From Alphaproteobacteria bacterium (GTDB lineage: Bacteria; Pseudomonadota; Alphaproteobacteria; SP197): a stretch of DNA of 64,000 bases. Below the pieces are notes generated by a model. It saw only the letters and a program-made list of their open reading frames with translations. It ran no database searches and was not told where the DNA came from. Below are positions 1,674-40,989 of this stretch, in pieces. Location: the NCBI GenBank assembly GCA_965116515.1, contig OZ220705.1:3888331-3952330 (forward strand). Reading direction: 5' to 3'. Numbering within the stretch: position 1 is the stretch's first letter; each line of letters starts with the position of its first letter. The position numbers and the translations under genes are program-made.

Positions 1674-2783
1674 TCAGAAACCGGCGATCATCTCACCCCA
1701 GTCACGGTTGATCATGGTCTCGATCTCTTCGACCTGCGCTCTCAGGAAGACACCCTTGTCCAGGATGTCGGCGGGGTTCCGGGAGAGTCCACGGGCCGTC
1801 AGATCGGCATCGCTGACGAGATCGAACGCCGCGGCGCTCGAGTGACCATAACCGTTTTCCACGATCGTGTGCACCCCGACCTCGGGAGCGAGCATCGCAT
1901 TGATGAGATCGTGGGCCTTGTCGTAGTGAGGCGCATTGCTGGTCAGCACCGTGCCACAGACCCAGGTGAGCGCGCCCTCCTTGACGTTGGCAAACTTCAC
2001 CGGAATGCCCTGCCTGGTGAGTTCCAGGGGCGAGCTGTTCCAGGTCATGGCCGCCACGAGTTCGCCGGAGGCGAGAGCCTGTTCCACCGTCGTCATGTCA
2101 CTCTGGCGGAACCGCAGCAGGTCACGCTGCTGCCTCAGGATATCGAGCACCTTCGCCAGGGCCTCATCGGTCAGGTTGTCGGTATCGACGCCGGCGTAGA
2201 TGGCGGCGCACCACCAGGCATCCTCGGCCGCATCGATGATCGAAAGCCTGCCGGCATAGCGCTCGTCCCACAGCAGCCCCCACGACTCCTCTTCGCCCTG
2301 CCAGTCGACGATGTCCGTGCGGTAGGTGATCGACGTCTGTCCCCACTCGACGGGAGCGAAATACTGCTCTCCCTCGTGCTGGGCATCCTGGATGTCGTAG
2401 AGCGCCGGAATCACGTCCTTCCAGTTGGAAAGCAGCGACGTGTCGATGGGCTGGAGAACGCCCGCGTGCCGCCAGCGGGGCACATTGTTGCTGCATGGAT
2501 GAATGACATCCACGACGAAGCCTGCTCTCACCTTGGTGAAGCCCTCCTCGGCGTCGCCATAGACCGGACAGTCCGGCTCCACGCCATGTTTCTCGACATA
2601 ACCTGGCCAGTAAATCGGATCGTCGTAACCGGCCCACGTGAAGTAGATCGCCTCTCCCTCGGCCCGGGCCGCCGTCAACGGCATCACCGTCGACACCAGT
2701 CCGACCGCGGCCATCGCCTGGCTGAGCTCACGACGGCTCAGCTCCCCGTTTTCAAGTCGCTTGATGGTATCCCTGATATCCAT
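1674..2783 (-). CDS. Periplasmic substrate-binding protein of an ABC transporter, PotD/PotF spermidine/putrescine-binding family (paralog B, intact). Tat-type signal.
   Basis: Listed ORF 1674..2807 is 377 aa. It has SRRELSQAMAAVGL twin-arginine-like n-region and the family-1 SBP fold. I prefer the ATG at 2783 as start because a GGAGGA RBS sits 8 nt upstream. The upstream GTG at 2807 is an alternative. Confidence 0.8.
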   Translation of the reverse strand: MDIRDTIKRLENGELSRRELSQAMAAVGLVSTVMPLTAARAEGEAIYFTWAGYDDPIYWPGYVEKHGVEPDCPVYGDAEEGFTKVRAGFVVDVIHPCSNNVPRWRHAGVLQPIDTSLLSNWKDVIPALYDIQDAQHEGEQYFAPVEWGQTSITYRTDIVDWQGEEESWGLLWDERYAGRLSIIDAAEDAWWCAAIYAGVDTDNLTDEALAKVLDILRQQRDLLRFRQSDMTTVEQALASGELVAAMTWNSSPLELTRQGIPVKFANVKEGALTWVCGTVLTSNAPHYDKAHDLINAMLAPEVGVHTIVENGYGHSSAAAFDLVSDADLTARGLSRNPADILDKGVFLRAQVEEIETMINRDWGEMIAGF

Positions 2784-2982
2784 GGATGTGATCCTCCAGT
2801 TTGTCACTCGCCCGGAGCCCGGTGGCCCCGGGTTTCATGTTGTGTCCGCGCCACCTGGTTGCGGACCTGGTGAGCATCACCCAGGTTTTCTGACTGGTCA
2901 ATCAAACTCGACACCGGCGCGACGACAAGGCGCTATGGCACGGATGCGTGTAGACTGTCATGGAGCAGCGGGAGTCACAGTC

Positions 2983-5010
2983 ATGCGCATCGTCGACGCT
3001 CTGCCCTCGAAGGTGGAGGTGAGGGAAGAGGGTGTGTGGATCCCTCTCAATCGCGGCGTTCGCCTGGCGGCGCGCATCTGGCTTCCCGACGATGCGGAAC
3101 ACAATCCGGTGCCGGCACTTCTCGAGTATCTCCCCTATCGCAAGCGCGACATGACGCGGCCAGGAGACGAGCCGAAACACGCTTGGTTCGCCGGCCACGG
3201 CTATGCCAGCCTGCGCGTCGACCTAGCCGGCGCCGGTGACAGTTTCGGCGTCATGCGCGACGAGTACACCAGGCAGGAACTCGAGGACGGCCGCGAGGTG
3301 ATCGCCTGGATCGCCAGGCAGTCCTGGTGCACCGGCAATGTGGGCATGTTCGGCATCTCCTGGGGTGGTTTCAACTCGCTTCAGGTGGCTGCCCTGCAGC
3401 CCCCGGAACTCAAGGCCGTGGTCACGTCGTGCTCCACCGACGACCGCTACAGCGACGACATGCACTACATGGGTGGCTGCCTGCTCAACGACAACCTCGA
3501 CTGGGGAACCACCTTCTTCGGCATCCTGCCCCTCCCCGGAGACCCGCTGGTCATGGGAGAGGACTGGCGAGCGAACTGGCAAGCGCGGCTGGAGGACGTC
3601 CCCTGCCCCGTCGAAACGTGGATGCGCCACCAGACGCGCGATTCCTACTGGCGTCACGGATCGGTGTGCGAGGACTATGACGCCATCCGCTGCCCGGTCT
3701 TCGCCGTCGGTGGCTGGCTCGACGGCTACTCCAATGCCGTCTTCCGCCTGCTCGCCGGACTCGAGGTACCGCGTCTCGGACTCATTGGCCCCCATGCCCA
3801 CCAGTGGGGCCATATGGAGACCGCGCCCGGCCCCCACTTCGGCTTTCTCCAGGAAATGCTGCGCTGGTGGGATCACTGGCTCAAGCACAAGGAGACGGGA
3901 ATCATGGAAGAGCCCATGCTGCGGGTCTTCCTGCAGGACGGGGTGCCGCCCCGTTCCTGGTATCGTGACTGTCCAGGTCACTGGATCGGCGAGGTCACGT
4001 GGCCCTCGCAGCGAATCCGCAACCGCCGCTACCACCTGAACCCGGACGGTCTCGGCAGGGAACCTGGCCGTCACGAACCGCGATCCGCCGTCACGCCCCA
4101 GACGCTGGGTCTTGCCGGCGGCGAATGGTGCCCTTACGGCACCGGCGGTGACGGGCCCGAGTTCCCTGGCGATCAGCGCCAGGACGACGGCGCTTCGATC
4201 ACCTTCGAGACGCCACCGCTTGACGCGGATATCGACATCCTCGGCCCGCCGGTGGCGGAACTTGAACTCGAGGTCGACAGGCCTGTCGCCTATCTCATCG
4301 CCCGCCTCAACGACGTCCGTCCCGATGGCGCGGTGTCACGGGCGTCCTTCGGTGTCCTCAACCTGACCCATCGCCACGGACACGATGAGCCCGAGGCCAT
4401 GCCCACGGGTAGCCCAACGACGGTGCAGTTGACGCTCAACGACTGCGCCTACCGCTTTCGCAAGGGGCACCGGATCCGCATGTCGCTCTCCACAACCTAC
4501 TGGCCGATGCTGTTTCCGGCTCCCGAATCGGTACTGCTGACGGTCCATACCGGGACCAGTGTGCTCGACCTTCCGGTGAGACCTGCCACGGGCGGGCCCC
4601 GGATCGGTGAATTCGAGGAACCAGAACAGGCACCGGCGATGGCAATGACGCAGATCGCCGCTCCGCAATCGCGCAACGTAACCACGATTGATCAGCAATC
4701 AGGGCGTCTCGAAGTGACGTCCGAGCGGGGCAGCGGCACCTACCGCATCGAAGACCATGGTCTCGAGTTCGCGAGGGACACCTTCGAACGCATGAGCATC
4801 ACTCCGGACGACCCGCTCTCCGCCGAGAGCGAGGTCGTCGTCACCACCCACATGAAACGCGGCGATTTCGAGGTGGACGTGCGTGCCCGCACCCATCTCA
4901 GGGCATCACGCGAACAGTTCCATCTCGCCGCCGATCTCGACGTCCGGGAGGGCCGTGACCGGATCCTGACGCGCCGCTGGTCCGTGCCCATCGACCGTCA
5001 TCTTGTGTGA
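2983..5010 (+). CDS. CocE/NonD-family hydrolase (X-Pro dipeptidyl-peptidase S15-like alpha/beta hydrolase)
   Basis: Motifs LEYLPYRKRD, GYASLRVDLAGAGDS and GMFGISWGGF (nucleophile elbow) are typical of CocE/NonD. The listed ORF starts at 2761. That N-terminal extension mirrors the promoter and 5' region of the divergent SBP gene, so I prefer the ATG at 2983 with a GGGAG RBS. Confidence 0.8.
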   Translation: MRIVDALPSKVEVREEGVWIPLNRGVRLAARIWLPDDAEHNPVPALLEYLPYRKRDMTRPGDEPKHAWFAGHGYASLRVDLAGAGDSFGVMRDEYTRQELEDGREVIAWIARQSWCTGNVGMFGISWGGFNSLQVAALQPPELKAVVTSCSTDDRYSDDMHYMGGCLLNDNLDWGTTFFGILPLPGDPLVMGEDWRANWQARLEDVPCPVETWMRHQTRDSYWRHGSVCEDYDAIRCPVFAVGGWLDGYSNAVFRLLAGLEVPRLGLIGPHAHQWGHMETAPGPHFGFLQEMLRWWDHWLKHKETGIMEEPMLRVFLQDGVPPRSWYRDCPGHWIGEVTWPSQRIRNRRYHLNPDGLGREPGRHEPRSAVTPQTLGLAGGEWCPYGTGGDGPEFPGDQRQDDGASITFETPPLDADIDILGPPVAELELEVDRPVAYLIARLNDVRPDGAVSRASFGVLNLTHRHGHDEPEAMPTGSPTTVQLTLNDCAYRFRKGHRIRMSLSTTYWPMLFPAPESVLLTVHTGTSVLDLPVRPATGGPRIGEFEEPEQAPAMAMTQIAAPQSRNVTTIDQQSGRLEVTSERGSGTYRIEDHGLEFARDTFERMSITPDDPLSAESEVVVTTHMKRGDFEVDVRARTHLRASREQFHLAADLDVREGRDRILTRRWSVPIDRHLV

Positions 5011-6015: not shown

Positions 6016-6504
6016 CTAGAATCGTCCAAGAACCAGAAATCGCACGGCCGGTTCTCCCGTTGGCGGAAGCCTGTCCCAGGTAGCCTTCATCTTCAACAGC
6101 GCGCCTGCCGCGCACATCCGCTCGCAAGCGTCCGCCAGCCCGCCTCCAGGCGCCACGGCAAGGGACAATACTCCTCCCGCCCTCAGCAGTCTGACGAGAT
6201 CGTCAAGCACGTCAGGAGAAACATCGCCGCCCCTGAAAGCCCCTGCTGCGACGACAGCGTCGTAGGTGCGATCCGGCAGATCAGCGGGTGACCTGGCGCT
6301 GAAGAGCCGGCGGTAGGCACCTCTCGCGCGTGCTTGCGCGAGCAAGTTGGCGCAAGCATCCATGCCGTCGATGATCCGGTATCCAAGATCTGCGAGAACC
6401 GCGCCGGCCGCACCGTCGCCACAACCCCAATCGAGAATCTCCGCCTGCCGGTTGTCCATGTGGCCAGCAAGGTTGTGACAGCATCCGGCGACGCCATCAC
6501 GCAT
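6016..6504 (-). CDS. Small class I SAM-dependent methyltransferase
   Basis: 162 aa. Motif I ILDWGCGDGAAG. Start uncertain. Confidence 0.5.
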   Translation of the reverse strand: MRDGVAGCCHNLAGHMDNRQAEILDWGCGDGAAGAVLADLGYRIIDGMDACANLLAQARARGAYRRLFSARSPADLPDRTYDAVVAAGAFRGGDVSPDVLDDLVRLLRAGGVLSLAVAPGGGLADACERMCAAGALLKMKATWDRLPPTGEPAVRFLVLGRF

Positions 6505-6618
6505 CGGATCCCTCCATCAGTCGGGGTAACGGCAGTTGGTTCGGTGGGTTCCTGTTGTGCGACCCTCCATGCACCGGACACTCCATCGACCTTGCTCCCG
6601 CTGGTCCGAAGGACAGGG

Positions 6619-7206
6619 TCATGGTCTCGCCCGCGTTGTCAGCGAGGCGATCAGCCTTTGAGCCGCCGCAAGCGCCATGGCGCGGTAGCGAGGCGGTCCT
6701 CTTAGGGTCACCATCGACTGGTGATCGTTGTAGATGGCGGCAAGGCCGTGGGCAACGGTCGTGACGTCGTCTGAATCGGCATCGGGAAACGAGATACGCA
6801 GCACGTCCCCCAGGGCATCGACGAAGCCCTGGAGCCAGCTCTCGAGGCGGGCGGCAATCGCCGGATTGCGGCGGGCGGCAGAATAAACCGATTCGAGGAC
6901 CGGCAACTCGTCGTCCGGAACCTCCGGAAACAGGTAGTCCGGCAGGCTCCCGACGCCCGCCTTGGCGATGAACCAGGCGCGCATCTCGTCGTTTTGCAGC
7001 TGGAGGCGGGCTTCCAGACGATCGAGGAATGCCGCGACCAGATCGTCGCGGTTGCCGATGTAGTGACGGATGATCGAGCGCCTGACACCCGCTTCACCGG
7101 CCACCTCCTCCAGGGAGGCGGCGTCCAGCCCCGAACGTGCCACGCACCGCGAGAACGCATCAAGAATCTGTTCCGATCGCTCGGCACTGAGATCAGGACG
7201 CGCCAT
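6619..7206 (-). CDS. TetR-family transcriptional regulator
   Basis: HTH SEQILDAFSRCVARSGLDAASLEEVAGEAGVRRSIIRHYIGNRDDL. I chose the ATG at 7206. The listed ORF starts at a GTG at 7215. Confidence 0.8.
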   Translation of the reverse strand: MARPDLSAERSEQILDAFSRCVARSGLDAASLEEVAGEAGVRRSIIRHYIGNRDDLVAAFLDRLEARLQLQNDEMRAWFIAKAGVGSLPDYLFPEVPDDELPVLESVYSAARRNPAIAARLESWLQGFVDALGDVLRISFPDADSDDVTTVAHGLAAIYNDHQSMVTLRGPPRYRAMALAAAQRLIASLTTRARP

Positions 7207-7244
7207 GAATGTCACCCCGAATTGCGAGTGTCTTGTCCGAAAAA

Positions 7245-7292
7245 TAGATTGTCATTATTGACAATTTATATTGATCCATCAGAATTGTCATC
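7245..7292. promoter_or_regulatory. Candidate TetR operator and divergent promoter. Palindrome ATTGTCA-TTAT-TGACAAT (7248..7265) plus a third ATTGTCA half-site at 7284..7290. A TTGACA -35-like hexamer (7258..7263) is embedded in the palindrome.
   Basis: Read directly in the intergenic region between the TetR gene (start 7206, minus strand) and the plus-strand gene starting at 7320. Confidence 0.5.
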
Positions 7293-7319
7293 CACGAACA
7301 CCTGGAGAGGGCTGGATTC

Positions 7320-9260
7320 ATGCACTGCCGCCTTACCGCCATAATGGCTCACTTCCTCGCCCTTGCCATCCTGGTCTGCCCCTTCGACGTGGCAACGGGT
7401 GATACCGCCTACGGCAGCCACGACGCATGGAGCGGCCAGGTGGCCCAAGTCTACGGCACCCGCGTGGTTGATCTCGACGGCGCCGTTCATCGAATCGGGA
7501 CCGACGCCGGCGTCCGGCCGGTGGTCCTTCTGTTCATGAACGCCTTCTGTCCGGTATCCAACCGCTACGCTCCCGAACTCAATGATCTTGCCACATTGGC
7601 CGATGCGCTTGGCGCCTCCTTCTACGGTGTCATGTCGGGGCCTTATCTGACGGTGGGTGAAGCCAGGAACTTCGTGGATGACCACGGTTTCGACTTTCCC
7701 GTCATCTTCGATCCCTCCGGTGATCTCGCCCTGCGCCTCAACCCCGTCGTCACCCCGGAGGCCTTTGTCATCGATACCGGTGACGATGTCATCTACCGCG
7801 GCCGCATCGACGACCGTTTCGAAGCGATCGGCGTGCTGCGCAACCAGATCACCAGCCACGACCTCAAGGATGCCATCGCAATGGTGGGGGCGGATGACGA
7901 TCCGCTGCCCGTCTCCACGACGCCCGTCGGCTGCGTGTTCGAGGGCTGGGATGCGGACCGACTGCCGGAATCCGTGACCTACAACCGGGATATCGCTCCC
8001 CTGCTCACGGCCAACTGCACGGAGTGCCACAGGGACGGCAGTGTTGCCCCCTTCCCGCTCGATACCTTTGTCGATGCCAGACGCCGGGCCCGCATGCTGG
8101 CCTTCGTGACCCGCGAGCAGATCATGCCGCCCTGGCGTGCCGTCGAGGGATTCGGTGCCTTCCGCGACGAGCGACATCTTTCCGACCGCCAGATCGCTCT
8201 CCTCGCAGCATGGGCCGAAGCCGGTGCACCGCTGGGGGACGCAGCGGATGCGCTTCCGGAAACGGCGTGGCCGGACCCCGAGTGGCGCATCGGCGAACCG
8301 GATCTCATTCTCGAGATGGAGGAGCCCTTCGCCATCCCCGCGACTGGTCCCGATATCTATCGGTACTTCGTCATCCCGTTCGAGCTGTTTGAGGAGCATG
8401 GAATCAGGGCCATCGAATTCCAGCCCGGCGACGAGAGCGTCGTTCATCACGCCAACCTTTTCGTCGACTACTCAGGTGCTGCGCGCCGCGAGGACGCCAA
8501 GGACGACATACCGGGCTTTTCCGTCTTCGGGACGGGGAACTTCTTCGACTACAGCGGCGAGCAGGAAACCTGGGGCATCGGAGGCTGGACACCCGGCGTC
8601 GATCCCTATGTCCTGCCCGACAAGCATGCCATGTGGCTTCCGGCCGGCGCCGGCGACGTCGTGTTCGAGATCCACTACCACCTCAGTGGCAAGGCCACGG
8701 AGGACCGGAGCCGGATCGGCCTGAGATTCGCCGACGAGCCCGTTGCCCACTGGGTTGACGGGCTCGTGATCGGCACGCAACAGCTCGCGATCCCTCCGGA
8801 ATCGGACACCTACTGGCGCCATGTCCGGATGGAGGTTCCGGCGTCGATCAGGCTGATCGACATCTTGCCGCACATGCACTACCTGGGAGCCGAGGCCAGG
8901 GCGATCGCGACCCTCCCGGACGGTACGCAGATACCGCTGGTCCATGTCGAGGAATGGGATCTGCGGTGGCAGAACATCTACACCTTCCGCGAACCGATCC
9001 ACCTGCCCGCCGGCAGCACGATCGACGGCTGGATAAGATTCAACAACACCTCCCACAACCCCTACAACCCGACGCTGCCGCCCAAGACCGTGACGTGGGG
9101 CTGGGGTTCGGACGAGGAGATGATGGAGTTCTGGATCAGCTTCGTGCTCGACGACTGGCGTCAGCGTGACCGGGTGATCAATGCATCGTGGAATACCTGG
9201 TCCGAGGATCCCCGGTGGGACGGCCCGGTGCCGGATCTGGCCGACCTCAACCTGCCCTGA
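7320..9260 (+). CDS. Secreted tri-domain redox protein: thioredoxin-like (AhpC/TSA/TlpA-like) domain with CxxS motif, c-type haem-binding site, and a C-terminal copper type II ascorbate-dependent monooxygenase (PHM/DBH)-like domain.
   Basis: 646 aa. Signal peptide MAHFLALAILVCPFDVATG. Redoxin-like region FMNAFCPVSNRYAPEL (monothiol C-P-V-S). Haem motif NCTECHRDGSVAPFPLD (CxxCH). His-rich C-terminal blocks HHANLFVDY, HYHLSGK and HMHYLGAE, as in Cu-monooxygenase folds. GGAGAGG RBS before the ATG at 7320. Confidence 0.6.
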   Translation: MHCRLTAIMAHFLALAILVCPFDVATGDTAYGSHDAWSGQVAQVYGTRVVDLDGAVHRIGTDAGVRPVVLLFMNAFCPVSNRYAPELNDLATLADALGASFYGVMSGPYLTVGEARNFVDDHGFDFPVIFDPSGDLALRLNPVVTPEAFVIDTGDDVIYRGRIDDRFEAIGVLRNQITSHDLKDAIAMVGADDDPLPVSTTPVGCVFEGWDADRLPESVTYNRDIAPLLTANCTECHRDGSVAPFPLDTFVDARRRARMLAFVTREQIMPPWRAVEGFGAFRDERHLSDRQIALLAAWAEAGAPLGDAADALPETAWPDPEWRIGEPDLILEMEEPFAIPATGPDIYRYFVIPFELFEEHGIRAIEFQPGDESVVHHANLFVDYSGAARREDAKDDIPGFSVFGTGNFFDYSGEQETWGIGGWTPGVDPYVLPDKHAMWLPAGAGDVVFEIHYHLSGKATEDRSRIGLRFADEPVAHWVDGLVIGTQQLAIPPESDTYWRHVRMEVPASIRLIDILPHMHYLGAEARAIATLPDGTQIPLVHVEEWDLRWQNIYTFREPIHLPAGSTIDGWIRFNNTSHNPYNPTLPPKTVTWGWGSDEEMMEFWISFVLDDWRQRDRVINASWNTWSEDPRWDGPVPDLADLNLP

Positions 9261-9431
9261 TACCGCACCGGCTGTGCTGGCAACGGAGGGGCCACCACCG
9301 GGCCGCATTCGCGATCGACCATTGACATGGCCCTCAAGGCGACCCTGGCCGGGGCCAACGCGTGCCGTGACGATCTGGACTGGTCGGCAGCCACATCGCC
9401 TCGCCAGTGCGTTGAGCGCAAGAGCCGGGAG

Positions 9432-10721
9432 TCAGGTCCAGGTGGGCGGCGTTTCCTGCAGATCAAGACGGTCGCGCATCACGCCGGAGACGAGGTACCA
9501 GGTGAGACCGAACTGTCGCAAGCCATGACGGGGGACGAGGTCCAGCGATTCCACGGGCATGTCGGTTTCCTCGCCAAGAACGAGGCGCGTGAGCTGGGTG
9601 CCGAACATCGTGCTCATGGCGACGCCGCGTCCGTTGAAACCAAGACCGGCGTGGACGTTCCGGGCGAGCCGGAAGAGACGTGGCGTGTGATCGGGTGTCA
9701 CGGCCACCCGGCCGCCCCAGCGGTGGGTCCAGGCGACGCCTTCGAGTGCCGGGAAGATCGCCGTGGCCATCTTGCGCAGATGTCCGACCGAACCCGGCTC
9801 CGCACCGTTCGTGAAGTTTCCGCGGCCACCCATGACGAAGCGGTTGTCGCGATCGAGCCGGAAATAGTGCAGCGTCCGGCGGGTCTCCGCGACAGCATGT
9901 CGACCGGGCAGGATGGCTCTGCGGCGTTCTTCATCCAGGGGCTCGCTCGCGGCGATGAAACTGGTGACGGGCACCACCGAGCGCTCGAGTCCGGGCCACA
10001 GGCGGTCGCTGTAGCCATTCGTGCAGAGCAGCAGGTGTTCGGCCTCGACTTCGCCACCCGAGGCTGCCAGGCGCCAGCCGGCACCATGCGCATGAACGCT
10101 GTGGACGCGGGTCCGGCCATGGACGATGGCGCCCCTTGCGATGGCCGCCCGCGCCAGACCGCGGGCAAATGACAGGGGTTGCACGTGTCCGCCCCGGGGG
10201 TCGTGCATGCCGATATGGTAGTAGTCCGTGCCGATGAAATCCTTCAGGGCGGCACGTTCCAGGCGCTCGACCTTCACACCCTGTTCGCCCCATTCCCGGG
10301 ACCACGCCTCGAGGAAGGCCTTGGCGTGGCGGCCAAGCCCGGCGCTGACCAGTCCGGGGCGTTCATGATCACAGTCGATGCCGTGGCGGCCAATCAGGTC
10401 GAACACGAGGTCCGTCGCCTGATCGAGCATGGCCAACACGGCAGGCGTCCTGTTGCCGCCATACTTTGCCGCAACCTCCGAGGGCAGCATGCGCCAGCCC
10501 GGATTGACCTGGCCGCCGTTTCGGCCGGAGGCGCCCCAGCCAGGTTCTCCGGCTTCCAGCACGATCACCCGCTTGCCGGCTTCAGCCAGGTGAAGTGCCG
10601 CCGACAGTCCGGTAAAGCCGCCACCGACGATGGCGACATCCGCACCGGTCTCTCCGGCAAGGGGTGGCGTGTCAATGGCAGGCGCCGCGCTCGCGGCCCA
10701 CAGGCTCTCCGGCAGCTTCAT
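9432..10721 (-). CDS. FAD-dependent oxidoreductase, DAO family (gamma-glutamylputrescine oxidase PuuB / glycine-D-amino-acid oxidase-like)
   Basis: Dinucleotide-binding motif DVAIVGGGFTGLSAALHLAEAGKRVIVLE. I chose the ATG at 10721 (MKLPESLW...). The listed ORF extends to 10820. Confidence 0.75.
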   Translation of the reverse strand: MKLPESLWAASAAPAIDTPPLAGETGADVAIVGGGFTGLSAALHLAEAGKRVIVLEAGEPGWGASGRNGGQVNPGWRMLPSEVAAKYGGNRTPAVLAMLDQATDLVFDLIGRHGIDCDHERPGLVSAGLGRHAKAFLEAWSREWGEQGVKVERLERAALKDFIGTDYYHIGMHDPRGGHVQPLSFARGLARAAIARGAIVHGRTRVHSVHAHGAGWRLAASGGEVEAEHLLLCTNGYSDRLWPGLERSVVPVTSFIAASEPLDEERRRAILPGRHAVAETRRTLHYFRLDRDNRFVMGGRGNFTNGAEPGSVGHLRKMATAIFPALEGVAWTHRWGGRVAVTPDHTPRLFRLARNVHAGLGFNGRGVAMSTMFGTQLTRLVLGEETDMPVESLDLVPRHGLRQFGLTWYLVSGVMRDRLDLQETPPTWT

Positions 10722-10788
10722 CACGGATTCCCCCGATGCAGAGGGTAGTCTAGTCTGTCCGCTGGAACCGAGACCAGACCGACGAACC

Positions 10789-12300
10789 ATGACGGCACCT
10801 CCCAACATCCTCCTTGTCATGATGGATCAACTCGCGCCTCAGGTGCTGAAGCCCTACGGCGGCACGGTGTGCCGGACGCCCAATCTGGAGCGGTTGGCCG
10901 GCGAGGGCGTTGTGTTCGAGAACGCCTACTGCAATTACCCGATCTGTGCGCCGGCTCGCTTCAGCCTTATGTCAGGCCGCATGCCGAGCCGCATCGGAGC
11001 GTTCGACAACGCAACCGAATTTCCATCCGAGGTCCCGACCTTCGCACACTATCTTCGTGCAATGGGCTATCACACGTGCCTGTCCGGCAAGATGCACTTC
11101 GTCGGTGCGGACCAGCTTCACGGTTTCGAGGACCGGGTGACGACCGACGTCTATCCCGCCGACTTCTCGTGGACCAGCGACTGGTCGCTGGGTCCGACCT
11201 TCTGGGAACCGTGGTTCCACTCGGTGCGGATGGTGCGCGATGCGGGACCTTGGCGGCGCAGCGTCAACACGAGCTACGATGAGGAGGCAACCGTCGAGGC
11301 CTGCCGCTGGCTGCACGATCACGCCGACCGGGCCGATGGCCGGCCCTTCTTCCTGGCGGCGAGCTTCATCAGCCCGCACGACCCCTACCTGGCGCCTCCG
11401 TCTCACTGGGATCTCTACACGGACGACGGGATCGACGATCCCAGGGTCGGCGACATCCCGCTCGAGGAGCGTGACCCCCACAGTCGCAGATTGTACTACA
11501 CGATCGGTCGCCACATGGAGACGATCGGTCCTGCGGACGTCCGCCGGGCGCGACGCGCCTACTATGCCGTGATGAGCTGGCTCGATGACCGCATCGGGCG
11601 GATCCTGGAGACCCTCAAGGCCATCGACGCAGACGACCATACGATCGTCGTCCTGACAGCCGATCACGGAGACATGCTTGGCGAACGCGGCCTGTGGCTC
11701 AAGATGAGCTTCTTCGAGTGGTCGGTGCGCGTACCGCTGATCGTGCATGCGCCGACGCTCTATCGAGCGCGCCGGGTCAGGGAGAACGTGTCCCTGCTGG
11801 ATCTCTTTCCGACCTTCCTGGAATGGGCCGGCGACGGCGAACTGCCGGAACTGTTCGCGCCGATCGACGGCGCCAGCGTCGCCGGACTGGCCGCCGGACA
11901 CAGTGACGGCTGGCCTGATGTCGTCGGTAGCGAGTACTGCGGTGAGGGCGCGTCCTCACCGGTGCTCATGATTCGCCGCGGACGCTGGAAGTACATCCAT
12001 TGCGAGGATGATCCGCCCCTGCTCTTCGACATCGAGCAGGATCCTGACGAACTCGTCAACCTCGCCGGGACACCGGAGGTCGGCGGCGTCGAGACCGATC
12101 TTGCCGGCGAGGTCTGTCGCTGGTGGGATACCGCGGCCCTGAAGGATCGCGTGATCGAGAGTCAGAGGCGCAGGAAGTTCCTTCACGCCGCCCTGTCGGT
12201 TGGCCGTCGCACACCCTGGGACTGGCAACCGGTGCGTGATGCCTCGCGTGAGTATGTGCGTGGCGACAGTGACGTGGATGGCATCTATGACAGGACCTGA
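10789..12300 (+). CDS. betC: Choline-sulfatase
   Basis: Sulfatase signature CAPARFSLMSGR (C-x-P-x-R). N-terminus MTAPPNILLVMMDQL. About 500 aa with the typical BetC length and C-terminal region. I chose the ATG at 10789. The listed ORF 10630.. overlaps the divergent gene. Confidence 0.8.
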   Translation: MTAPPNILLVMMDQLAPQVLKPYGGTVCRTPNLERLAGEGVVFENAYCNYPICAPARFSLMSGRMPSRIGAFDNATEFPSEVPTFAHYLRAMGYHTCLSGKMHFVGADQLHGFEDRVTTDVYPADFSWTSDWSLGPTFWEPWFHSVRMVRDAGPWRRSVNTSYDEEATVEACRWLHDHADRADGRPFFLAASFISPHDPYLAPPSHWDLYTDDGIDDPRVGDIPLEERDPHSRRLYYTIGRHMETIGPADVRRARRAYYAVMSWLDDRIGRILETLKAIDADDHTIVVLTADHGDMLGERGLWLKMSFFEWSVRVPLIVHAPTLYRARRVRENVSLLDLFPTFLEWAGDGELPELFAPIDGASVAGLAAGHSDGWPDVVGSEYCGEGASSPVLMIRRGRWKYIHCEDDPPLLFDIEQDPDELVNLAGTPEVGGVETDLAGEVCRWWDTAALKDRVIESQRRRKFLHAALSVGRRTPWDWQPVRDASREYVRGDSDVDGIYDRT

Positions 12301-12537
12301 AACCGCCGGATGACAAACGGCATGGTCGCCACCTCGGCCGCACCCGTGACCACGCCGGTGGCCGTTCCATCAACATGACCGCACGACGCACGACTTATTG
12401 CCGGCATCGACCTGCTCCCTACGTGGATCAGGAATTGCCACCGGCGCCCGACCTTCAGGCCGGGTGACGTCTGGCCCGACAATCTGCGCATAGGGTAGGC
12501 TGAATCGACGTCTCCGAACGGAACCAGGGGGGAGCCC

Positions 12538-13500
12538 GTGAAGGCAGAGACCGCAACGAACGAATGGCACCGAAGTCCGCGGCGGGTGCATGTGCACTTC
12601 GATGGCATCAGGGTCGCGGACTCCGAGCGCACCATGCTGCTCCGTCAGCACGGCTTCCTGCCGGTCTACTACTTTCCCGAAGACGACGTGCGCACCGACC
12701 TTCTGGTGGCCACCGGCTACACGACCACGTCGCCCTACAAGGGCACGGCGAACTACTGGCATCTCGACACCGGATCACGTGTCGCGCGCTTCGCCGTGTG
12801 GCGATATCTGCGGCCGAAGGACGGATCGCCCGACACCAGCGGTCACTACGGTTTCGACTGGCACAGCATGGACGCCTGGTGGGAGGAAGACGAGCGCATC
12901 CTCGTGCACGCGCGCGATCCGTTCCTGAGGGTGGACGCGGTGCGCAGCGCCCGATCCGTCAGGGTCGAGATCGCCGGGTGTACCGTTGCGGAAACGCGCC
13001 GTCCCGTGCTGTTGTTCGAGACCGGACTGGTGACGCGCTACTATGTCCCCGAAGAGGACGTGCAATCCGGATTGTTCGAGCCGAGTGCCACCTACACGCT
13101 CTGTCCCTACAAGGGTCGTGCGCGTTATCATCATGTACGGATCGATGGCACTCGCTACAGCGATGTGGCCTGGCAGTATGTCCGCCCCCTGCCCGCGGTG
13201 GCGGCGATCGCCGGACACCTTGCGTTCTGGAACGAGCGCGCCGACACGACGATCTTCGTCGACGGAAAACACCTTCCGGACAGAGGCGTGCGCTCAGCCG
13301 GTGAGGGCAGCGAAATGCTGCAGCCGTGGCGTGAGTTCTGGGGGGAACCCCCGCCAGCCGCAATGAAGAGCCGAGGCATCGGCACACAGATCGAGGCCGC
13401 GCGTCCCAACGGCCGGGCCGAGGGCCCGCCCGACGATGTCATGGACCTCGATGTCGAACGCGCCGGAGGAGGCCCGGACGACTGGCCGGAACAGGGGTGA
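12538..13500 (+). CDS. Tandem DUF427-domain protein
   Basis: Two internal repeats. Each contains VRVxF/VRVEI...PVYYFP/RYYVPEEDV...CPYKGxAxY...VAW-YxxP, the DUF427 hallmarks. GTG start at 12538 with a GGGGGAG RBS. Confidence 0.6.
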   Translation: MKAETATNEWHRSPRRVHVHFDGIRVADSERTMLLRQHGFLPVYYFPEDDVRTDLLVATGYTTTSPYKGTANYWHLDTGSRVARFAVWRYLRPKDGSPDTSGHYGFDWHSMDAWWEEDERILVHARDPFLRVDAVRSARSVRVEIAGCTVAETRRPVLLFETGLVTRYYVPEEDVQSGLFEPSATYTLCPYKGRARYHHVRIDGTRYSDVAWQYVRPLPAVAAIAGHLAFWNERADTTIFVDGKHLPDRGVRSAGEGSEMLQPWREFWGEPPPAAMKSRGIGTQIEAARPNGRAEGPPDDVMDLDVERAGGGPDDWPEQG

Positions 13501-13597
13501 CCGGACAGGCGCCGCCGTGCCCTCCCCCTGACTGGCACGCTTCAGGTGCGTGCTCTACCCTGTCGCCCAAGTCCATAGCCGGCCAGGGAGCCATGCC

Positions 13598-15394
13598 ATG
13601 ATCCAGTCACGCCCGGAACTTGTCGGAACCTTCGGCATGGTGACCACCACCCACTGGCAGGCCAGTGCCGCCGGCATGGCCATGCTGGAACGGGGCGGCA
13701 ATGCCTTCGATGCGGCAGTGGCGGCCGGCTGTGTCCTCCATGTGGTCGAACCGGACCAGAATGGTCCAGGCGGCGATGTCCCCCTCATCCTGTGGAGCGA
13801 GAAGAGGAGCAGGGTCGACGTCATCTGTGGCCAGGGGGTGGCACCGTCGACGATCTCCGGTGAGGCCCTGCGGAACATGGGCCTCGATATCATGCCGGGA
13901 ACCGGACATCTGCCCGTCGTCGTGCCCGGCAGTTTCGGGGCCTGGATGCTGCTGTTGCGCGACTACGGGTGCCTCACGGTTCGCGAGGTTCTCGAACCGG
14001 CCATCGCCATCGCCCGCGACGGCTTCCTGCTCACTCCGACGGTCGCTTCCGTTCTCCGGCAAGCGCGTCCCTTCATGGAGGAATTCTGGCCGACATCGGC
14101 AGAAGCCTACTGTGACGGCACCCTCGAGGCCGGTGACCTCCACCGCCTGCCCATGCAGGCCCGGACCTGGGAGAGGATCATCGAGGAGGCGGAGGCCGCG
14201 GGCGGTGACCGCGAGGCCCAGGTCGAGGCGGCACGCAAGGCATGGTACGAGGGGTTTGTCGCAGAGGCGATCGACCGGTTCATGCGCGAACCGGTCATGG
14301 ATTCCAGCGGCGAGGCCCATGCGGGATTTCTCACCGGCGAAGACCTGGCGCGCTGGCGCGCCACCGTCGAGGATCCGGTGACTCTGGATTACGGCGACTA
14401 CACCGTCTGCAAGGCCGGACCCTGGTCCCAGGCCCCTGTCCTGCTCCAGCAGCTGGCCCTCCTCAAGGGCTTCGACGTGGCGGCCATGGATGCGTCGGGA
14501 CCTGACTTCGTCCACGTGATTCAGGAATGCGCCAAGCTTGCCCTTGCCGACCGCGAGGCCTTCTACGGCGATCCCCGCTTTGTCGATGTGCCGCTTGAGC
14601 GGCTGCTGTCCGAAGACTACTGCGCCGGCCGGCGCCAACTCGTGGAGGAAGCCGCCAGCCTGGAGATGCGGCCCGGAACGATCGACGGTTACGGTGGCGC
14701 CATCACGCTGAGAGCTCTGGGCTCAACCAACATCGCCCATGCATCGACCTCTCCCGAGAGCAGCGCTGGATCGAAACCGTGGCGGACATGGAGCGAATTT
14801 GTGGCCCGGCGCCATGGTGATACCTGCCACTTCGACATCATCGACCGCCATGGCAACATGATTTCGGGCACCCCTTCCGGCGGTTGGCTCACGGGATCGC
14901 CTGTCGTACCCGGTCTCGGCTTTCCGGTCTCGGTCAGGGGACAGATGTTCTGGCTCGACGACGCCCATCCCAATGCACTGCAGCCAGGCAAGCGGCCTCG
15001 CACCACTCTGACTCCTACCCTGGCGCTTCACAGGGGCGAACCGCGCCTCGTCTTCGGCACGCCCGGGGGCGATCATCAGGACCAGTGGTCTCTCCATGCC
15101 TTCCTGCGCCATGTGGATCACGGCATGACTCTCCAGGAGTCCCTTGACGCGCCATCCTTCTACACCGACCACATGCCGAGTTCGTTCTACCCGCGCGAGT
15201 GGATGCCGGGTCATCTGGCCATCGAGGATCATTTCCCCCGGTCCACCCTCGATGACCTCGACCGCAGGGGTCACGACCTCAGGATCTATCCGCGCTGGAG
15301 TCACTACAACTCGATGACAATGGCCTCGAAGGAAGGCCGCGTGCTGCGCGCCGCCGCCAGTCCGCGCCGGCAGTGCTACGCCGTGGGTCGCTGA
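13598..15394 (+). CDS. ggt: Gamma-glutamyltransferase family protein
   Basis: N-terminal GMVTTTHWQASAAGMAMLERGGNAFDAAVAAG. Autoprocessing/nucleophile region TCHFDIIDRHGNMISGTPSGG. GTPGG motif. Start chosen at MIQSRPELVG. Confidence 0.8.
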   Translation: MIQSRPELVGTFGMVTTTHWQASAAGMAMLERGGNAFDAAVAAGCVLHVVEPDQNGPGGDVPLILWSEKRSRVDVICGQGVAPSTISGEALRNMGLDIMPGTGHLPVVVPGSFGAWMLLLRDYGCLTVREVLEPAIAIARDGFLLTPTVASVLRQARPFMEEFWPTSAEAYCDGTLEAGDLHRLPMQARTWERIIEEAEAAGGDREAQVEAARKAWYEGFVAEAIDRFMREPVMDSSGEAHAGFLTGEDLARWRATVEDPVTLDYGDYTVCKAGPWSQAPVLLQQLALLKGFDVAAMDASGPDFVHVIQECAKLALADREAFYGDPRFVDVPLERLLSEDYCAGRRQLVEEAASLEMRPGTIDGYGGAITLRALGSTNIAHASTSPESSAGSKPWRTWSEFVARRHGDTCHFDIIDRHGNMISGTPSGGWLTGSPVVPGLGFPVSVRGQMFWLDDAHPNALQPGKRPRTTLTPTLALHRGEPRLVFGTPGGDHQDQWSLHAFLRHVDHGMTLQESLDAPSFYTDHMPSSFYPREWMPGHLAIEDHFPRSTLDDLDRRGHDLRIYPRWSHYNSMTMASKEGRVLRAAASPRRQCYAVGR

Positions 15395-37106: not shown

Positions 37107-38660
37107 TCAGGCTTGCGTTCGCTTTACCATGGCGCGGAGGTCCGAGAGGGCCCACGCACCCAGGTAGCGGGCTGAAACGGCATAGGTGACGAAACCGAGG
37201 GCCACCAGAACCACGAGATAAGCAGCAATGTGATCGCCGCTGGCAGGCCACCAGTGGTAGCGTGTGTAGTGGAGTGCTGCCAGCGCGGCCGCCATCACCG
37301 CTGTGGCCGCGACCATGCGGGGCAGGCGCCGCTTGAGGCGCTGATCGGCAATGAGGTGGTTCCGGCGGACCAGGACCACATAGAGGATGATGGCGTTGAC
37401 CCACGCCGCCGTGGCGGTCGCGAGGGCAATGCCGACATGACCCAGAGACCAGACCAGGGCCAGCATGACGGCAATGTTGCTCACGAGACCGACCACGGCA
37501 ATCTTCAGCACGGTCCCGGGGTCCTTGCGCGCAAAGAAGGCAGGTGCCAGCACCTTGATCAGCACATAGGCAGGAAGCCCGGCGGCGAATGCCCTGAGAG
37601 CGGCGGCACTCGCCTCGCTGTCGACCGCCTTGAAGGCGCCGCGCTCGAAGAGCACGGCGATCACCGGATGCGCGATGACCATGAGAGCGGCCGCCGCGGG
37701 CAGGGTGAGAACCATCACAAGTTCGATGGCGCGGCTCTGACTTTCGTTGGCCCCGGTCTCGTCACGAGCCTCGATCTGCCTCGACAACAGAGGCAGCAGT
37801 GCACTGCCCACGGCAATGCCGACAACTCCCAGCGGCAACTGATTGACCCGGTCTGCATAGTAGAGCCACGAAATGGCCCCGGTGGAAAGAAACGAGGCGA
37901 CCCACAGATCGATGAGAAGATTGACCTGCACGACGCCGGCACCAAGGGCCGCGGGAACGAAGCGGCGGAGCAGTTCCCTCACACCTGCCGTCAGGCGCGG
38001 CAGGAGAAGGCGAGGCATCATGCCGGCACGCCTGACTGCATGGAGGACAAGTGCCAGCTGCAGGATTCCGCCGCACGTCACGCCCCAGGAGACGGCCCTG
38101 CCTGCGTGCACATCGTCGAGCACATGAATCAGGAGCGCTGCGCCGATGAGACTGAGATTGAGCAGGATGGGCGCGGCGGCATAGGCGGCAAATCGCCCGG
38201 TCGAGTTGAGCATGCCGCCGAAGAGCGCCACCAGTGAAATCAGGAGGATGTAGGGAAAGGTGATGCGAGTGAGATCGACGGCCAGGTCGAATTTCAGGGG
38301 TTCGTCGACGAACCCGGGTGCCAGCACCGTGACCACCCACGGCATCGCCACCTCGAAGACTGCGACAAGCACGGCAAGAACCACGGCGAGAACCGCCAGG
38401 ACCTCGTCGGCCAGCCGCCTTGCGGCCACTTCGCCCTCACCCTCGAGGCTGCGGGCGAAGAGAGGGATGAACACCGTGTTGAAGGCGCCCTCAGCCAGAA
38501 GGCGGCGGAAGAAATTGGGGAGCTTGAAGGCGACAAGGAAGGCGTCCGCCACCCAGCCCGTCCCCAGGGCTGCGGCAAACAGCACGTCCCGCACAAATCC
38601 GAGAACCCTGCTCGCGGCTGTCAGTCCGCTGACCGTCAGGAAAGCCCTGGAGAGATTCAT
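37107..38660 (-). CDS. murJ: Lipid II flippase MurJ (MviN)
   Basis: MNLSRAFLTVSGLTAASRVLGFVRDVLFAAALGTGWVADAFLVAFKLPNFFRRLLAEGAFNTVFIPLFA, a near-canonical MurJ N-terminus. 517 aa polytopic. Confidence 0.85.
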   Translation of the reverse strand: MNLSRAFLTVSGLTAASRVLGFVRDVLFAAALGTGWVADAFLVAFKLPNFFRRLLAEGAFNTVFIPLFARSLEGEGEVAARRLADEVLAVLAVVLAVLVAVFEVAMPWVVTVLAPGFVDEPLKFDLAVDLTRITFPYILLISLVALFGGMLNSTGRFAAYAAAPILLNLSLIGAALLIHVLDDVHAGRAVSWGVTCGGILQLALVLHAVRRAGMMPRLLLPRLTAGVRELLRRFVPAALGAGVVQVNLLIDLWVASFLSTGAISWLYYADRVNQLPLGVVGIAVGSALLPLLSRQIEARDETGANESQSRAIELVMVLTLPAAAALMVIAHPVIAVLFERGAFKAVDSEASAAALRAFAAGLPAYVLIKVLAPAFFARKDPGTVLKIAVVGLVSNIAVMLALVWSLGHVGIALATATAAWVNAIILYVVLVRRNHLIADQRLKRRLPRMVAATAVMAAALAALHYTRYHWWPASGDHIAAYLVVLVALGFVTYAVSARYLGAWALSDLRAMVKRTQA

Positions 38661-38814
38661 TCCCCTCTCACAGCGTCGCCGGAAAGCCCGTGATCACGCT
38701 TCATCCCACAAAACGGAACATTCATGAACAGTCACGCCGCCCGTCTGCGGACGACAATGATCGGATATGATGGCGAACCGGTGTCCTGCCCGTCGGCAGC
38801 CGGGTAACTGGCCG

Positions 38815-39642
38815 TCAGGGCGTGATGCCGCGAAGCCGTTCGCTTCGGCGGCGCAGGAGTTCCATCACGATCATCAATCCGATCGATGTCAAGATGAGCA
38901 TGGTGGCGACCGCCATGATGGTCGGCGAAAGAAGCTCACGGATGCCCGACCACATGCGCCTTGGGAGCGTGTGCTCCTCGGTGCTGGCCAGGAAGATCGC
39001 GATGACCAGTTCATCCCACGACGTGATGAAGGCGAAGAGCGCACCGGCCACGACGCCTGGCAGAATGAGGGGAAGCGTGATCTTGAAGAAGACGCGCAAG
39101 GGGTCGCCACCCAGGCTCGCACCGGCCCGGATGAGATTGTAGTCGAATCCGGCCAGGGTGGCCGAAACGGTGATGACGACGAAGGGCACACCGATGGTCG
39201 CGTGGGCGAAGACGAGGCCGGCAAGCGTCCCGGTCAGTCCGACCTTGGCATAGAAATAGAACATGCCGGCCGCCGTGATGACGATCGGCACGATGATGGG
39301 AGAGATGAGGACTGCAAGGATCGTGGACTTTCCCGCATACTCGGCACGATTGAGACCCAGCGCTGCCAGGGTTCCCAGCACCGTCGCCACCAGGGTCGCG
39401 AAGATACCGACGATGATGCTGTTCTGGAGGCCCAGCAACCACTGCGGGCTCGAGAAGAAATCGCCGTACCAGCGCAGCGAAAAGCCTGGCATGGGGTACG
39501 TGAAATAGGGCTCGGAATTGAAGCTGAGCGGCATGATCACGATGATCGGAATGATCAGGAAGGCGAAGATCAGGCAGCAGATCACGCGGAACGTGACATA
39601 CCAGATCCTGTCGAGCGTCGTGGCGTAGGACGGCATCGCCAT
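38815..39642 (-). CDS. ABC transporter permease, PotC/PotI-like (polyamine)
   Basis: 275 aa, six TM helices, EAA-loop region GASLGGDPLRVFFKITLPLILPG. Confidence 0.8.
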   Translation of the reverse strand: MAMPSYATTLDRIWYVTFRVICCLIFAFLIIPIIVIMPLSFNSEPYFTYPMPGFSLRWYGDFFSSPQWLLGLQNSIIVGIFATLVATVLGTLAALGLNRAEYAGKSTILAVLISPIIVPIVITAAGMFYFYAKVGLTGTLAGLVFAHATIGVPFVVITVSATLAGFDYNLIRAGASLGGDPLRVFFKITLPLILPGVVAGALFAFITSWDELVIAIFLASTEEHTLPRRMWSGIRELLSPTIMAVATMLILTSIGLMIVMELLRRRSERLRGITP

Positions 39643-39644
39643 GG

Positions 39645-40907: not shown

Positions 40908-40989
40908 GTCCTGGTGTCTCCGCACCGATGATAGAAAAGACAGGGAAAACCGGGGCTGTGACGCCCCGGCTTTCCCTGGAACTGGCTCG

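Follow-up and report, generated by a model that had tools for sequence, protein, structure and literature searches.

A bacterial protein family that joins a PHM/DBH-like copper core to a fused cytochrome c and, frequently, a redoxin domain, beside a conserved TetR regulator

The stretch of alphaproteobacterial DNA analysed here (64 kb of contig OZ220705.1, referred to throughout as the window) carries, at positions 7320 to 9260 of its forward strand, a gene for a protein of 646 amino acids in which a redoxin domain, a small class-I cytochrome c and a copper core resembling those of PHM and DBH follow one another in a single chain. Comparison of this protein with its homologues, and of its gene with their genomic surroundings, suggests that it is probably, if with some reserve, an exported copper monooxygenase of the PHM/DBH type that would be induced through an adjacent TetR-family regulator and that would be supplied with electrons by way of its own haem, independently of ascorbate. 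Such a three-domain fusion had been proposed in an initial annotation of the same DNA, and both the fusion and the reading frame stand, as do all of the motifs quoted for it: translation places CPVS at residues 77–80 (nucleotides 7548–7559), CTECH at 233–237 (nucleotides 8016–8030), HHANLFVDY at 376–384, HYHLSGK at 452–458 and HMHYLGAE at 518–525. The same annotation held that no function had been established for fusions of this kind, and a full-text search of the literature likewise yielded no characterised bacterial member.

The gene begins with an ATG codon that is preceded by a ribosome-binding site (GGAGAGG, 7304–7310), and its product has full-length homologues in the hundreds; open reading frames on the opposite strand, at 7266–8450 and 8472–9308, are presumably shadow frames of DNA with a G+C content of 63–65%. 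A word-indexed search returned 594 homologues, mostly of 640–680 residues and named at most ‘redoxin domain-containing protein’, and an exhaustive search over 1.84 billion cluster representatives gave 18,118 matches at E ≤ 1e-3 and 2,834 clusters (at 50% identity) at E ≤ 1e-30. Conservation was assessed across 150 representatives of such 50%-identity clusters, which are 33–51% identical to the window protein, and family profiles were derived from an alignment of 30 sequences. The haem and copper motifs are kept so widely among these representatives that they cannot be fortuitous.

The copper core

A Pfam search, proposed initially as a check, was only partly informative: AhpC-TSA (E 2.5e-10) and Redoxin (E 2e-9) were the sole families above threshold for the window protein alone, nothing was returned for residues ~300–646, and profiles and structure were needed for recognition of the copper core; a search of NCBIfam added no domain assignment. 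Family-profile and structure comparisons bear out the PHM/DBH-like domain, with all six copper ligands. The profile of the 30-sequence alignment reaches rat PHM with an E-value of about 8e-5, and a profile of the C-terminal module reaches PHM with an E-value of 9e-7 over 259 profile positions. Weak Pfam matches to Cu2_monoox_C (PF03712) are found in 24 of the 30 aligned members and to Cu2_monooxygen (PF01082) in 10 of them, with only some members passing the Pfam cut-offs, among them P0164 (26.1 bits against 23 for Cu2_monoox_C). Because the window protein falls below the gathering thresholds and its relatives are mostly sub-threshold, the copper-core family is treated here as a probable distant sister group of PHM and DBH, and not as a member of the curated Pfam families.

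The region displays the two-jelly-roll catalytic core fold of the enzymes that combine PF01082 and PF03712, and the HMMER alignment of the family profile brings its predicted metal ligands into register with those of PHM: VVHHANLF pairs with TVHHMLLF (placing H376 and H377 opposite H107 and H108), VLEIHY with VLQVHY (H452 opposite H172), LPHMHYLGK with RVHTHHLGK (H518 and H520 opposite H242 and H244) and SDEEMAELW with SSDEMCNLY (M601 opposite M314). The resulting sets, His3 at the site termed CuH and His2Met at that termed CuM, occur in the order found in PHM and with similar spacing, and both sites would presumably be occupied by copper. All six positions are kept in 96–99% of representatives: H376 in 141/146, H377 in 144/146 and H452 in 141/144 at CuH, and H518 in 140/142, H520 in 139/142 and M601 in 133/135 at CuM. 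The histidine-rich motifs initially taken as those of a copper-monooxygenase-type module are all present, and their ligands are conserved, with the qualification that only the first histidine of HYHLSGK (H452) belongs among them; H454 varies across the family (H, R, Q, T or L) and is not a ligand. The sixth ligand, M601, lies in a DEEM motif that had been overlooked.

The cytochrome c and redoxin domains

The haem motif is found in the context expected of a cytochrome. The CxxCH sequence (C233, C236 and H237) is kept in 145 of 145 diverse relatives, and an MPP sequence (M269, P270 and P271) situated approximately 32 residues downstream is kept in 146 of 146; by this combined signature the domain is classed as a small class-I cytochrome c, in which M269 is the probable distal axial haem ligand, giving His/Met ligation. 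The Pfam family Cytochrome_CBB3, for which the cut-off is 27 bits, was matched (E ≤ 1) in all 30 aligned members. Two relatives, P0128 at 34.1 bits and P0136 at 37.1 bits, exceed that cut-off; the window protein, at 15.7 bits, does not, and its match to PccH is likewise below threshold. The best single-sequence matches of the haem domain in the PDB are to cytochromes c6 and to PccH, with non-significant E-values.

Covalent attachment of haem c needs export, and for that reason the 646-residue protein is expected to be exported; the signal-peptide-like N-termini of 28 of the 30 aligned members, the window protein among them, which show a basic n-region, a hydrophobic core of 12 residues and candidate cleavage sites at small residues, are consistent with this and lend heuristic support to the earlier description of the protein as secreted. 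In the predicted structure an N-terminal helix is followed by low values of pLDDT, the per-residue confidence score, at residues 19–35. A lipoprotein was considered and rejected, as the sequence I-L-V-C20 forms no lipobox and C20 is absent from close homologues.

In the N-terminal redoxin domain, the CPVS motif had been read as that of a monothiol protein; the motif is present, but the domain possesses a second conserved cysteine, C205, and so is not monothiol. Among the 104 representatives that carry the domain, C77 is kept in 102 and C205 in 99. A phmmer search of the PDB with the window protein matched only thioredoxin-fold proteins (2cvb, 2ywi, 1lu4 and 3u5r), and for residues 44–212 the best matches in both sequence and fold are 3u5r (SMc02350), 2cvb (from Thermus) and 2ywi (from Geobacillus), with structures of ResA, CcmG, TlpA and Sco as fold neighbours. 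Ungapped alignment of FMNAFCPV with FMCNHCPY of 2cvb and FICNHCPF of 2ywi places C77 opposite the second cysteine of their CxxC motifs. Both of those proteins retain CxxC, whereas the family retains only its second cysteine, the first position being N in the window protein and S, G, D, A or T in other representatives, and never cysteine.

The domain shares a Y-R/H-G-x-x-D-D motif with 3u5r, 2cvb and 2ywi, as well as the cysteine of a C-terminal ‘GC’ motif (C205 in the window protein); these three we take to be members of cd02969, the PrxL or PRX_like1 group that includes CC0220 of Caulobacter. Caulobacter PrxL is exported, possesses two redox-active cysteines that are far apart in sequence and form a disulfide, depends on ScsB, a DsbD-like transporter, to stay reduced in vivo, and has no detectable peroxidase activity and no defined function (PMC3322552). 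The query domain likewise appears to be exported and to hold two distant redox cysteines, and differs in being fused to haem and copper modules. A peroxiredoxin of the AhpC/TSA kind was rejected because the catalytic motif PxxxTxxC is absent (the residues up to C77, LLFMNAFC, include neither the proline nor the threonine, and members of the family have N, D, S or G three positions before C77) and because PrxL is without peroxidase activity (PMC3322552). Given two conserved and distant cysteines, the missing peroxiredoxin motif and PrxL as the closest characterised protein, the domain is best described, from these comparisons, as a PrxL-type dithiol-disulfide module.

Architecture and distribution of the family

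Many relatives align solely at residues ~217–612 of the window protein, and on this basis the haem domain and copper core are regarded as an obligate unit to which the redoxin domain is an accessory. The latter is present in 104 of the 150 top representatives, with the remaining 46 possessing haem and copper modules without it, and it is located either N-terminally, as in the window protein, or C-terminally to the core (P0164 and P0188). This recurrence of the fusion in different domain orders argues for a functional coupling of the redoxin domain to the haem-copper core. In one relative (P0136) the whole three-domain unit is tandemly duplicated, and others add TPR arrays, an FGE-sulfatase domain, G8/beta-helix regions, EF-hands or DUF1559.

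Within species-representative genomes the family is nearly restricted to metagenome-assembled genomes (MAGs). The nearest relatives of the window protein (86–89% identity) belong to the Alphaproteobacteria, and further hosts are found among the Rhodospirillales, Gammaproteobacteria, Planctomycetota, Verrucomicrobiales, Acidobacteriota, Gemmatimonadota/Longimicrobiales, Latescibacterota and Binatia, with the family centred on MAGs of uncultured Planctomycetota, Acidobacteriota, Gemmatimonadota, Latescibacterota and Alphaproteobacteria. Cultured members among the species-representative genomes are limited to a single lineage, Candidatus Uabimicrobium. This concentration in uncultured organisms may explain why the family has been overlooked, and its PHM fold may already be flagged by structure-based database annotation.

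A conserved TetR regulator and its putative operator

All open reading frames within 5 kb of the enzyme gene were clustered across 83 non-redundant loci, and a single conserved neighbour emerged: a TetR-family protein of approximately 195 residues, encoded less than 500 bp away in 56 of the loci. In 23 of these it is divergent and upstream; in 30 it lies upstream in the same direction as the enzyme gene, whose start it often abuts or overlaps; and in 3 it follows directly downstream. Of the 56 loci, 40 encode enzymes less than 60% identical to that of the window. The next two neighbour clusters are shadow frames of the TetR genes themselves. The adjacent TetR gene reported initially is confirmed in the window, where it is divergent on the minus strand (6619–7206 or 7215) and its product scores 25.0 bits for TetR_N, just above the Pfam cut-off of 24; orthologues stand divergently beside the enzyme gene in close relatives, in Planctomycetota and in Verrucomicrobiales. 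Solved structures offered no clue to the TetR ligand, showing only a helix-turn-helix level of similarity to generic TetRs, and NCBIfam matches to BetI and AcrR are limited to the N-terminus.

The 113 bp between the tetR and enzyme genes contain a perfect palindrome and a third half-site (Table 1), both of which stay unchanged across an alignment of 11 orthologous intergenic regions in which flanking positions vary. The palindrome occurs once in the window, against 0.09 occurrences expected, and in the loci retrieved it occurs only immediately upstream of the enzyme gene, in 18 loci that include two from Planctomycetota (L044 and L071) and one alphaproteobacterial locus (L050) whose enzyme is 47% identical. 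A scan for promoter consensus sequences gave two sites, against 0.7 expected. Because the conserved palindrome overlaps both of these divergent predicted promoters, the layout is that of a classical TetR repressor controlling itself and a divergent target, in which the TetR protein would be expected to bind the palindrome.

Two alphaproteobacterial relatives (L001, 7292–9977, and L004, 7298–9989; 80% and 65% identity) have the TetR-enzyme pair between tgt and queA, and in the window it is found between methyltransferase/arginase-family and DAO/sulfatase genes. This placement among queuosine genes, differing as it does from that of the window, is the reason why the pair appears to relocate as a two-gene unit. 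Genes for arginase-family, DAO oxidoreductase, methyltransferase, S15 peptidase and choline-sulfatase-like proteins are common only to relatives of at least 65% identity, and RND efflux genes adjoin the enzyme gene in few loci only. A sulfatase gene 1.4 kb downstream of the enzyme gene in the window, together with the FGE fusion of P0146, prompted a test of a link to sulfatase maturation, which was rejected as a trait of the family: of the 83 loci, only 9 close and 2 distant ones have a sulfatase neighbour and only 2 an FGE neighbour, and a single protein out of 270 is fused to FGE.

Proposed mechanism and alternative explanations

In the mechanism proposed, CuM (H518, H520 and M601) would activate O2 for hydroxylation of a C-H bond in the substrate, and CuH (H376, H377 and H452) would receive two electrons per turnover from the fused haem c, in place of ascorbate, and pass them to CuM. 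The haem (bound through C233, C236 and H237, with M269) would be re-reduced by cytochromes c of the periplasm. The dithiol-disulfide couple of C77 and C205 would probably be held reduced by a membrane transporter of the DsbD, ScsB or CcdA type, as is PrxL, and might either give the haem-copper chain a second, two-electron input or serve as a thiol-based module for substrate handling or protection. Expression would be repressed by TetR bound to the putative TTGTCA-N4-TGACAA operator, which overlaps both predicted divergent promoters, until TetR was released by a small molecule, for which the substrate or a compound akin to it is the most plausible candidate.

Several observations weigh against this mechanism. 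Single-sequence searches with residues ~300–646 (Pfam, NCBIfam and PDB phmmer) gave no match, and the window protein has no Pfam match at E ≤ 0.1 to either Cu2 monooxygenase domain, so that the assignment of the copper core rests upon profiles and a predicted structure. L516, E603 and W605 stand in place of the residues by which PHM binds peptidylglycine (R240, N316 and Y318), and these positions differ from member to member of the family; being unconserved, they do not point to a substrate, and hydroxylation by the core is presumptive. TPR fusions in relatives hint at protein or peptide partners more than at small molecules. Approximately 24 loci with full flanks have no detectable adjacent TetR, and neither a DsbD/ScsB gene nor a cytochrome gene is a conserved neighbour in the 83 loci.

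In a variant of this mechanism, the same PHM-type hydroxylation would be directed at a side chain or terminus of a periplasmic peptide or protein, with the redoxin domain holding or reducing a client cysteine. PHM itself acts on peptides, TPR arrays (P0188, P0235 and P0260) and the FGE-sulfatase domain (P0146) are typical of protein recognition or modification, and one locus (L005) provides a RiPP-like context (that is, one resembling genes for ribosomally synthesised and post-translationally modified peptides), with four NHase-alpha-like small frames and a LanC-like/DUF4135 protein. We nevertheless consider such a substrate unlikely, in that the carboxylate-binding residues of PHM are replaced and variable, neither a conserved PAL or lyase partner nor a precursor-peptide gene was found nearby in the 83 loci, the sulfatase and FGE link described above is not conserved, and a TetR switch of its own is more commonly associated with the catabolism or detoxification of small molecules. 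The narrower reading as a peptidylglycine hydroxylase was rejected, with R240, N316 and Y318 unconserved and no PAL neighbour.

An organic substrate might also be dispensed with altogether, the protein serving as a periplasmic haem-copper oxidase, reductase or detoxifier that would simply reuse the PHM scaffold and would pass electrons from cytochromes or thiols to O2, H2O2, superoxide, nitrite/NO or copper. The absence of any recognisably conserved PHM substrate pocket would fit such a role; a chain with three redox modules, one of them peroxiredoxin-like, points to stress chemistry, some loci have MsrA and RND efflux genes near the enzyme gene, and Foldseek matches include PHM structures with nitrite, azide, CO or O2 at copper. 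Set against this, both copper sites keep the ligand sets and spacing of PHM, whose known relatives hydroxylate; the stress and efflux neighbours are not conserved across the 83 loci; and the nearest relative of the redoxin domain, PrxL, is without peroxidase activity (PMC3322552). Such a role therefore strikes us as improbable. Least credible, and indeed very improbable, is a plain redoxin: an AhpC/TSA thiol peroxidase, or a TlpA-, ResA- or Sco-like oxidoreductase for maturation of a cytochrome or copper protein, to which the jelly rolls would contribute a non-catalytic binding module. Its appeal derives from AhpC-TSA and Redoxin being the only above-threshold Pfam families, from the source annotations as ‘redoxin domain-containing protein’ and from the fold neighbours ResA, CcmG, TlpA and Sco. 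It is countered by the lack of PxxxTxxC (LLFMNAFC being found instead) and of the first cysteine of CxxC, by the inactivity of PrxL as a peroxidase (PMC3322552), by the 46 of 150 representatives that keep haem and copper without a redoxin domain, and by the expectation that a passive binding module would not hold six metal ligands at 96–99%.

The preferred reading, of a haem-fed copper monooxygenase, can be extended to a self-wired enzyme with three redox centres that would represent the PHM/DBH class in prokaryotes in a form independent of ascorbate, an extension that we regard as doubtful. The C77/C205 couple, fed by ScsB or DsbD, would store the two electrons of each turnover and release them singly through haem c to CuH and CuM; the substrate would also induce expression through TetR; monooxygenases of the PHM fold would be of ancient standing in bacteria, as a very large family there (thousands of clusters, predominantly from uncultured marine and soil phyla), instead of a eukaryotic invention; and the haem would serve as an optical reporter of the long-debated electron transfer from CuH to CuM.

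Relation to known systems

Copper enzymes with tethered cytochromes include the cytochrome c-fused NirK nitrite reductases and the cytochrome domain of cellobiose dehydrogenase, which feeds the copper of LPMO. In these systems, as presumably in the present family, a catalytic copper receives single electrons from a small haem domain belonging to the same chain or system, with no need of a diffusible reductant; they differ in their unrelated copper folds (cupredoxin and LPMO) and in their chemistry. Neither to our knowledge nor in the searchable literature has a PHM-fold enzyme with a fused cytochrome c been described, and the full-text search turned up no paper on PHM-fold monooxygenases that are bacterial or fused to a cytochrome.

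PHM, the catalytic core of PAM (1phm, 1opm and 1sdw), is about 15% identical to the window protein, which differs from it in lacking a PAL partner, in being bacterial and apparently periplasmic, in its fusion to haem c and redoxin domains, in its presumed independence of ascorbate and in the replacement of the PHM substrate residues. DBH, tyramine beta-monooxygenase and MOXD (4zel) are likewise distinct: DBH possesses DOMON and dimerisation domains and neither a c-type cytochrome nor a redoxin domain, and it is an enzyme of the eukaryotic secretory pathway that uses ascorbate. The catalytic scaffold and its ligand sets are known, and the domain wiring, the phyletic range and the dedicated regulator are new.

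PHM and DBH are the textbook copper enzymes of neuroendocrine tissue, responsible in animals for amidated hormones and for noradrenaline. A comparative study published in 2022 described PHM as widespread among eukaryotes and PNGase F, a member of the same clan, as widespread among bacteria (PMC8812541). The present analysis indicates that PHM and DBH have in bacteria a very large and uncharacterised sister family, comprising the 2,834 clusters noted above, in which both copper sites are intact and in which a fused cytochrome c, usually accompanied by a two-cysteine redox domain, apparently replaces the diffusible reductant; the chemistry ascribed to it is presumptive throughout. Were the proposed mechanism correct, the family would provide a recombinant bacterial model, with a built-in haem chromophore, for the passage of electrons between the distant coppers of PHM and DBH, a first functional context for the orphan periplasmic PrxL family, and a new pool of O2-dependent C-H hydroxylases, each accompanied by a ligand-sensing TetR and a defined operator that would offer a route to its substrate.

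Features of the window and of related loci

Table 1. Coordinates of the enzyme gene, its encoded domains and the adjacent regulatory region within the window
Feature	Position	Strand	Details
TetR-family regulator gene	6619..7215	-	likely ATG at 7206 (MARPDL..., 195 residues); longest frame from GTG at 7215
Putative TetR operator	7249..7264	.	perfect palindrome TTGTCA-N4-TGACAA; extended form ATTGTCA-N4-TGACAAT at 7248-7265
Predicted sigma-70-type enzyme promoter	7258..7285	+	TTGACA/16 nt/CAGAAT, 10/12 matches; -35 inside palindrome
Predicted tetR promoter	7263..7291	-	ATGACA/17 nt/TAAATT, 9/12 matches; overlaps operator half-sites
Putative third operator half-site	7283..7290	.	AATTGTCA; 100% complementary to arm 7259-7266; overlaps predicted -10 hexamer
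Coding sequence of three-domain protein	7320..9260	+	homologues mostly full length
Signal-peptide-like N-terminus, residues 1-27	7320..7400	+	R4, hydrophobic core 8-19, candidate cleavage after A-T-G27; heuristic scan
Probable PrxL/PRX_like1-type redoxin (thioredoxin fold), residues ~44-212	7449..7955	+	C77 (nt 7548-7550), C205 (nt 7932-7934); YRGRIDDRF at residues 159-167
Small class-I cytochrome c, residues ~216-300	7965..8219	+	C233-T-E-C236-H237 (nt 8016-8030); M269 in MPPW (nt 8124-8135)
N-terminal jelly roll, putative CuH site	8283..8729	+	H376, H377 (nt 8445-8450), H452 (nt 8673-8675)
C-terminal jelly roll, putative CuM site	8730..9155	+	H518, H520 (nt 8871-8879), M601 (nt 9120-9122)

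Two related loci have surroundings of their own. In a 7.6-Mb Rhodospirillales MAG (L005, 1–6014), four small open reading frames with weak NHase_alpha matches, possibly RiPP precursors of the NHLP type, lie immediately upstream of the TetR-enzyme pair together with a 1,102-residue DUF4135/LanC-like protein resembling lanthipeptide synthetases, and an amidohydrolase and an RND efflux system lie downstream. On a Tara Oceans scaffold (L007), a TPR-extended member of 840 residues is encoded without a TetR gene and is flanked by a divergent methionine sulfoxide reductase gene (PMSR, 6137–6661) and by a complete, co-directional OEP/MFP/RND efflux operon (9520–15280).

Downstream of the enzyme gene in the window, the frames of a DAO-family FAD oxidoreductase (9432–10820, minus strand) and of a choline-sulfatase-like protein (10630–12300, plus strand) overlap by approximately 190 bp as listed; the start of the latter is most likely near 10786 (MTAPPNILL...), in agreement with the start of its orthologue in another locus (L009) and with a tblastn boundary. 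A protein of 320 residues with two tandem DUF427 (NTP_transf_9) domains is encoded 3 kb downstream of the enzyme gene (12538–13500, plus strand). Upstream, a frame of 749 residues with a TTG start (2761–5010, plus strand) encodes an S15 X-Pro dipeptidyl-peptidase or CocE/NonD-type hydrolase, the domain of which begins at residue ~99, so that the true start is probably well downstream of 2761. A strongly positive AT skew (0.228) in the composition profile at 38001–40000 is attributed to ordinary codon and amino-acid bias, and not to an anomaly, because it coincides with minus-strand genes for membrane proteins, the genes of that region being those of a MurJ flippase (37107–38660), an ABC permease (39645–40925) and a solute-binding protein (40990–42063).

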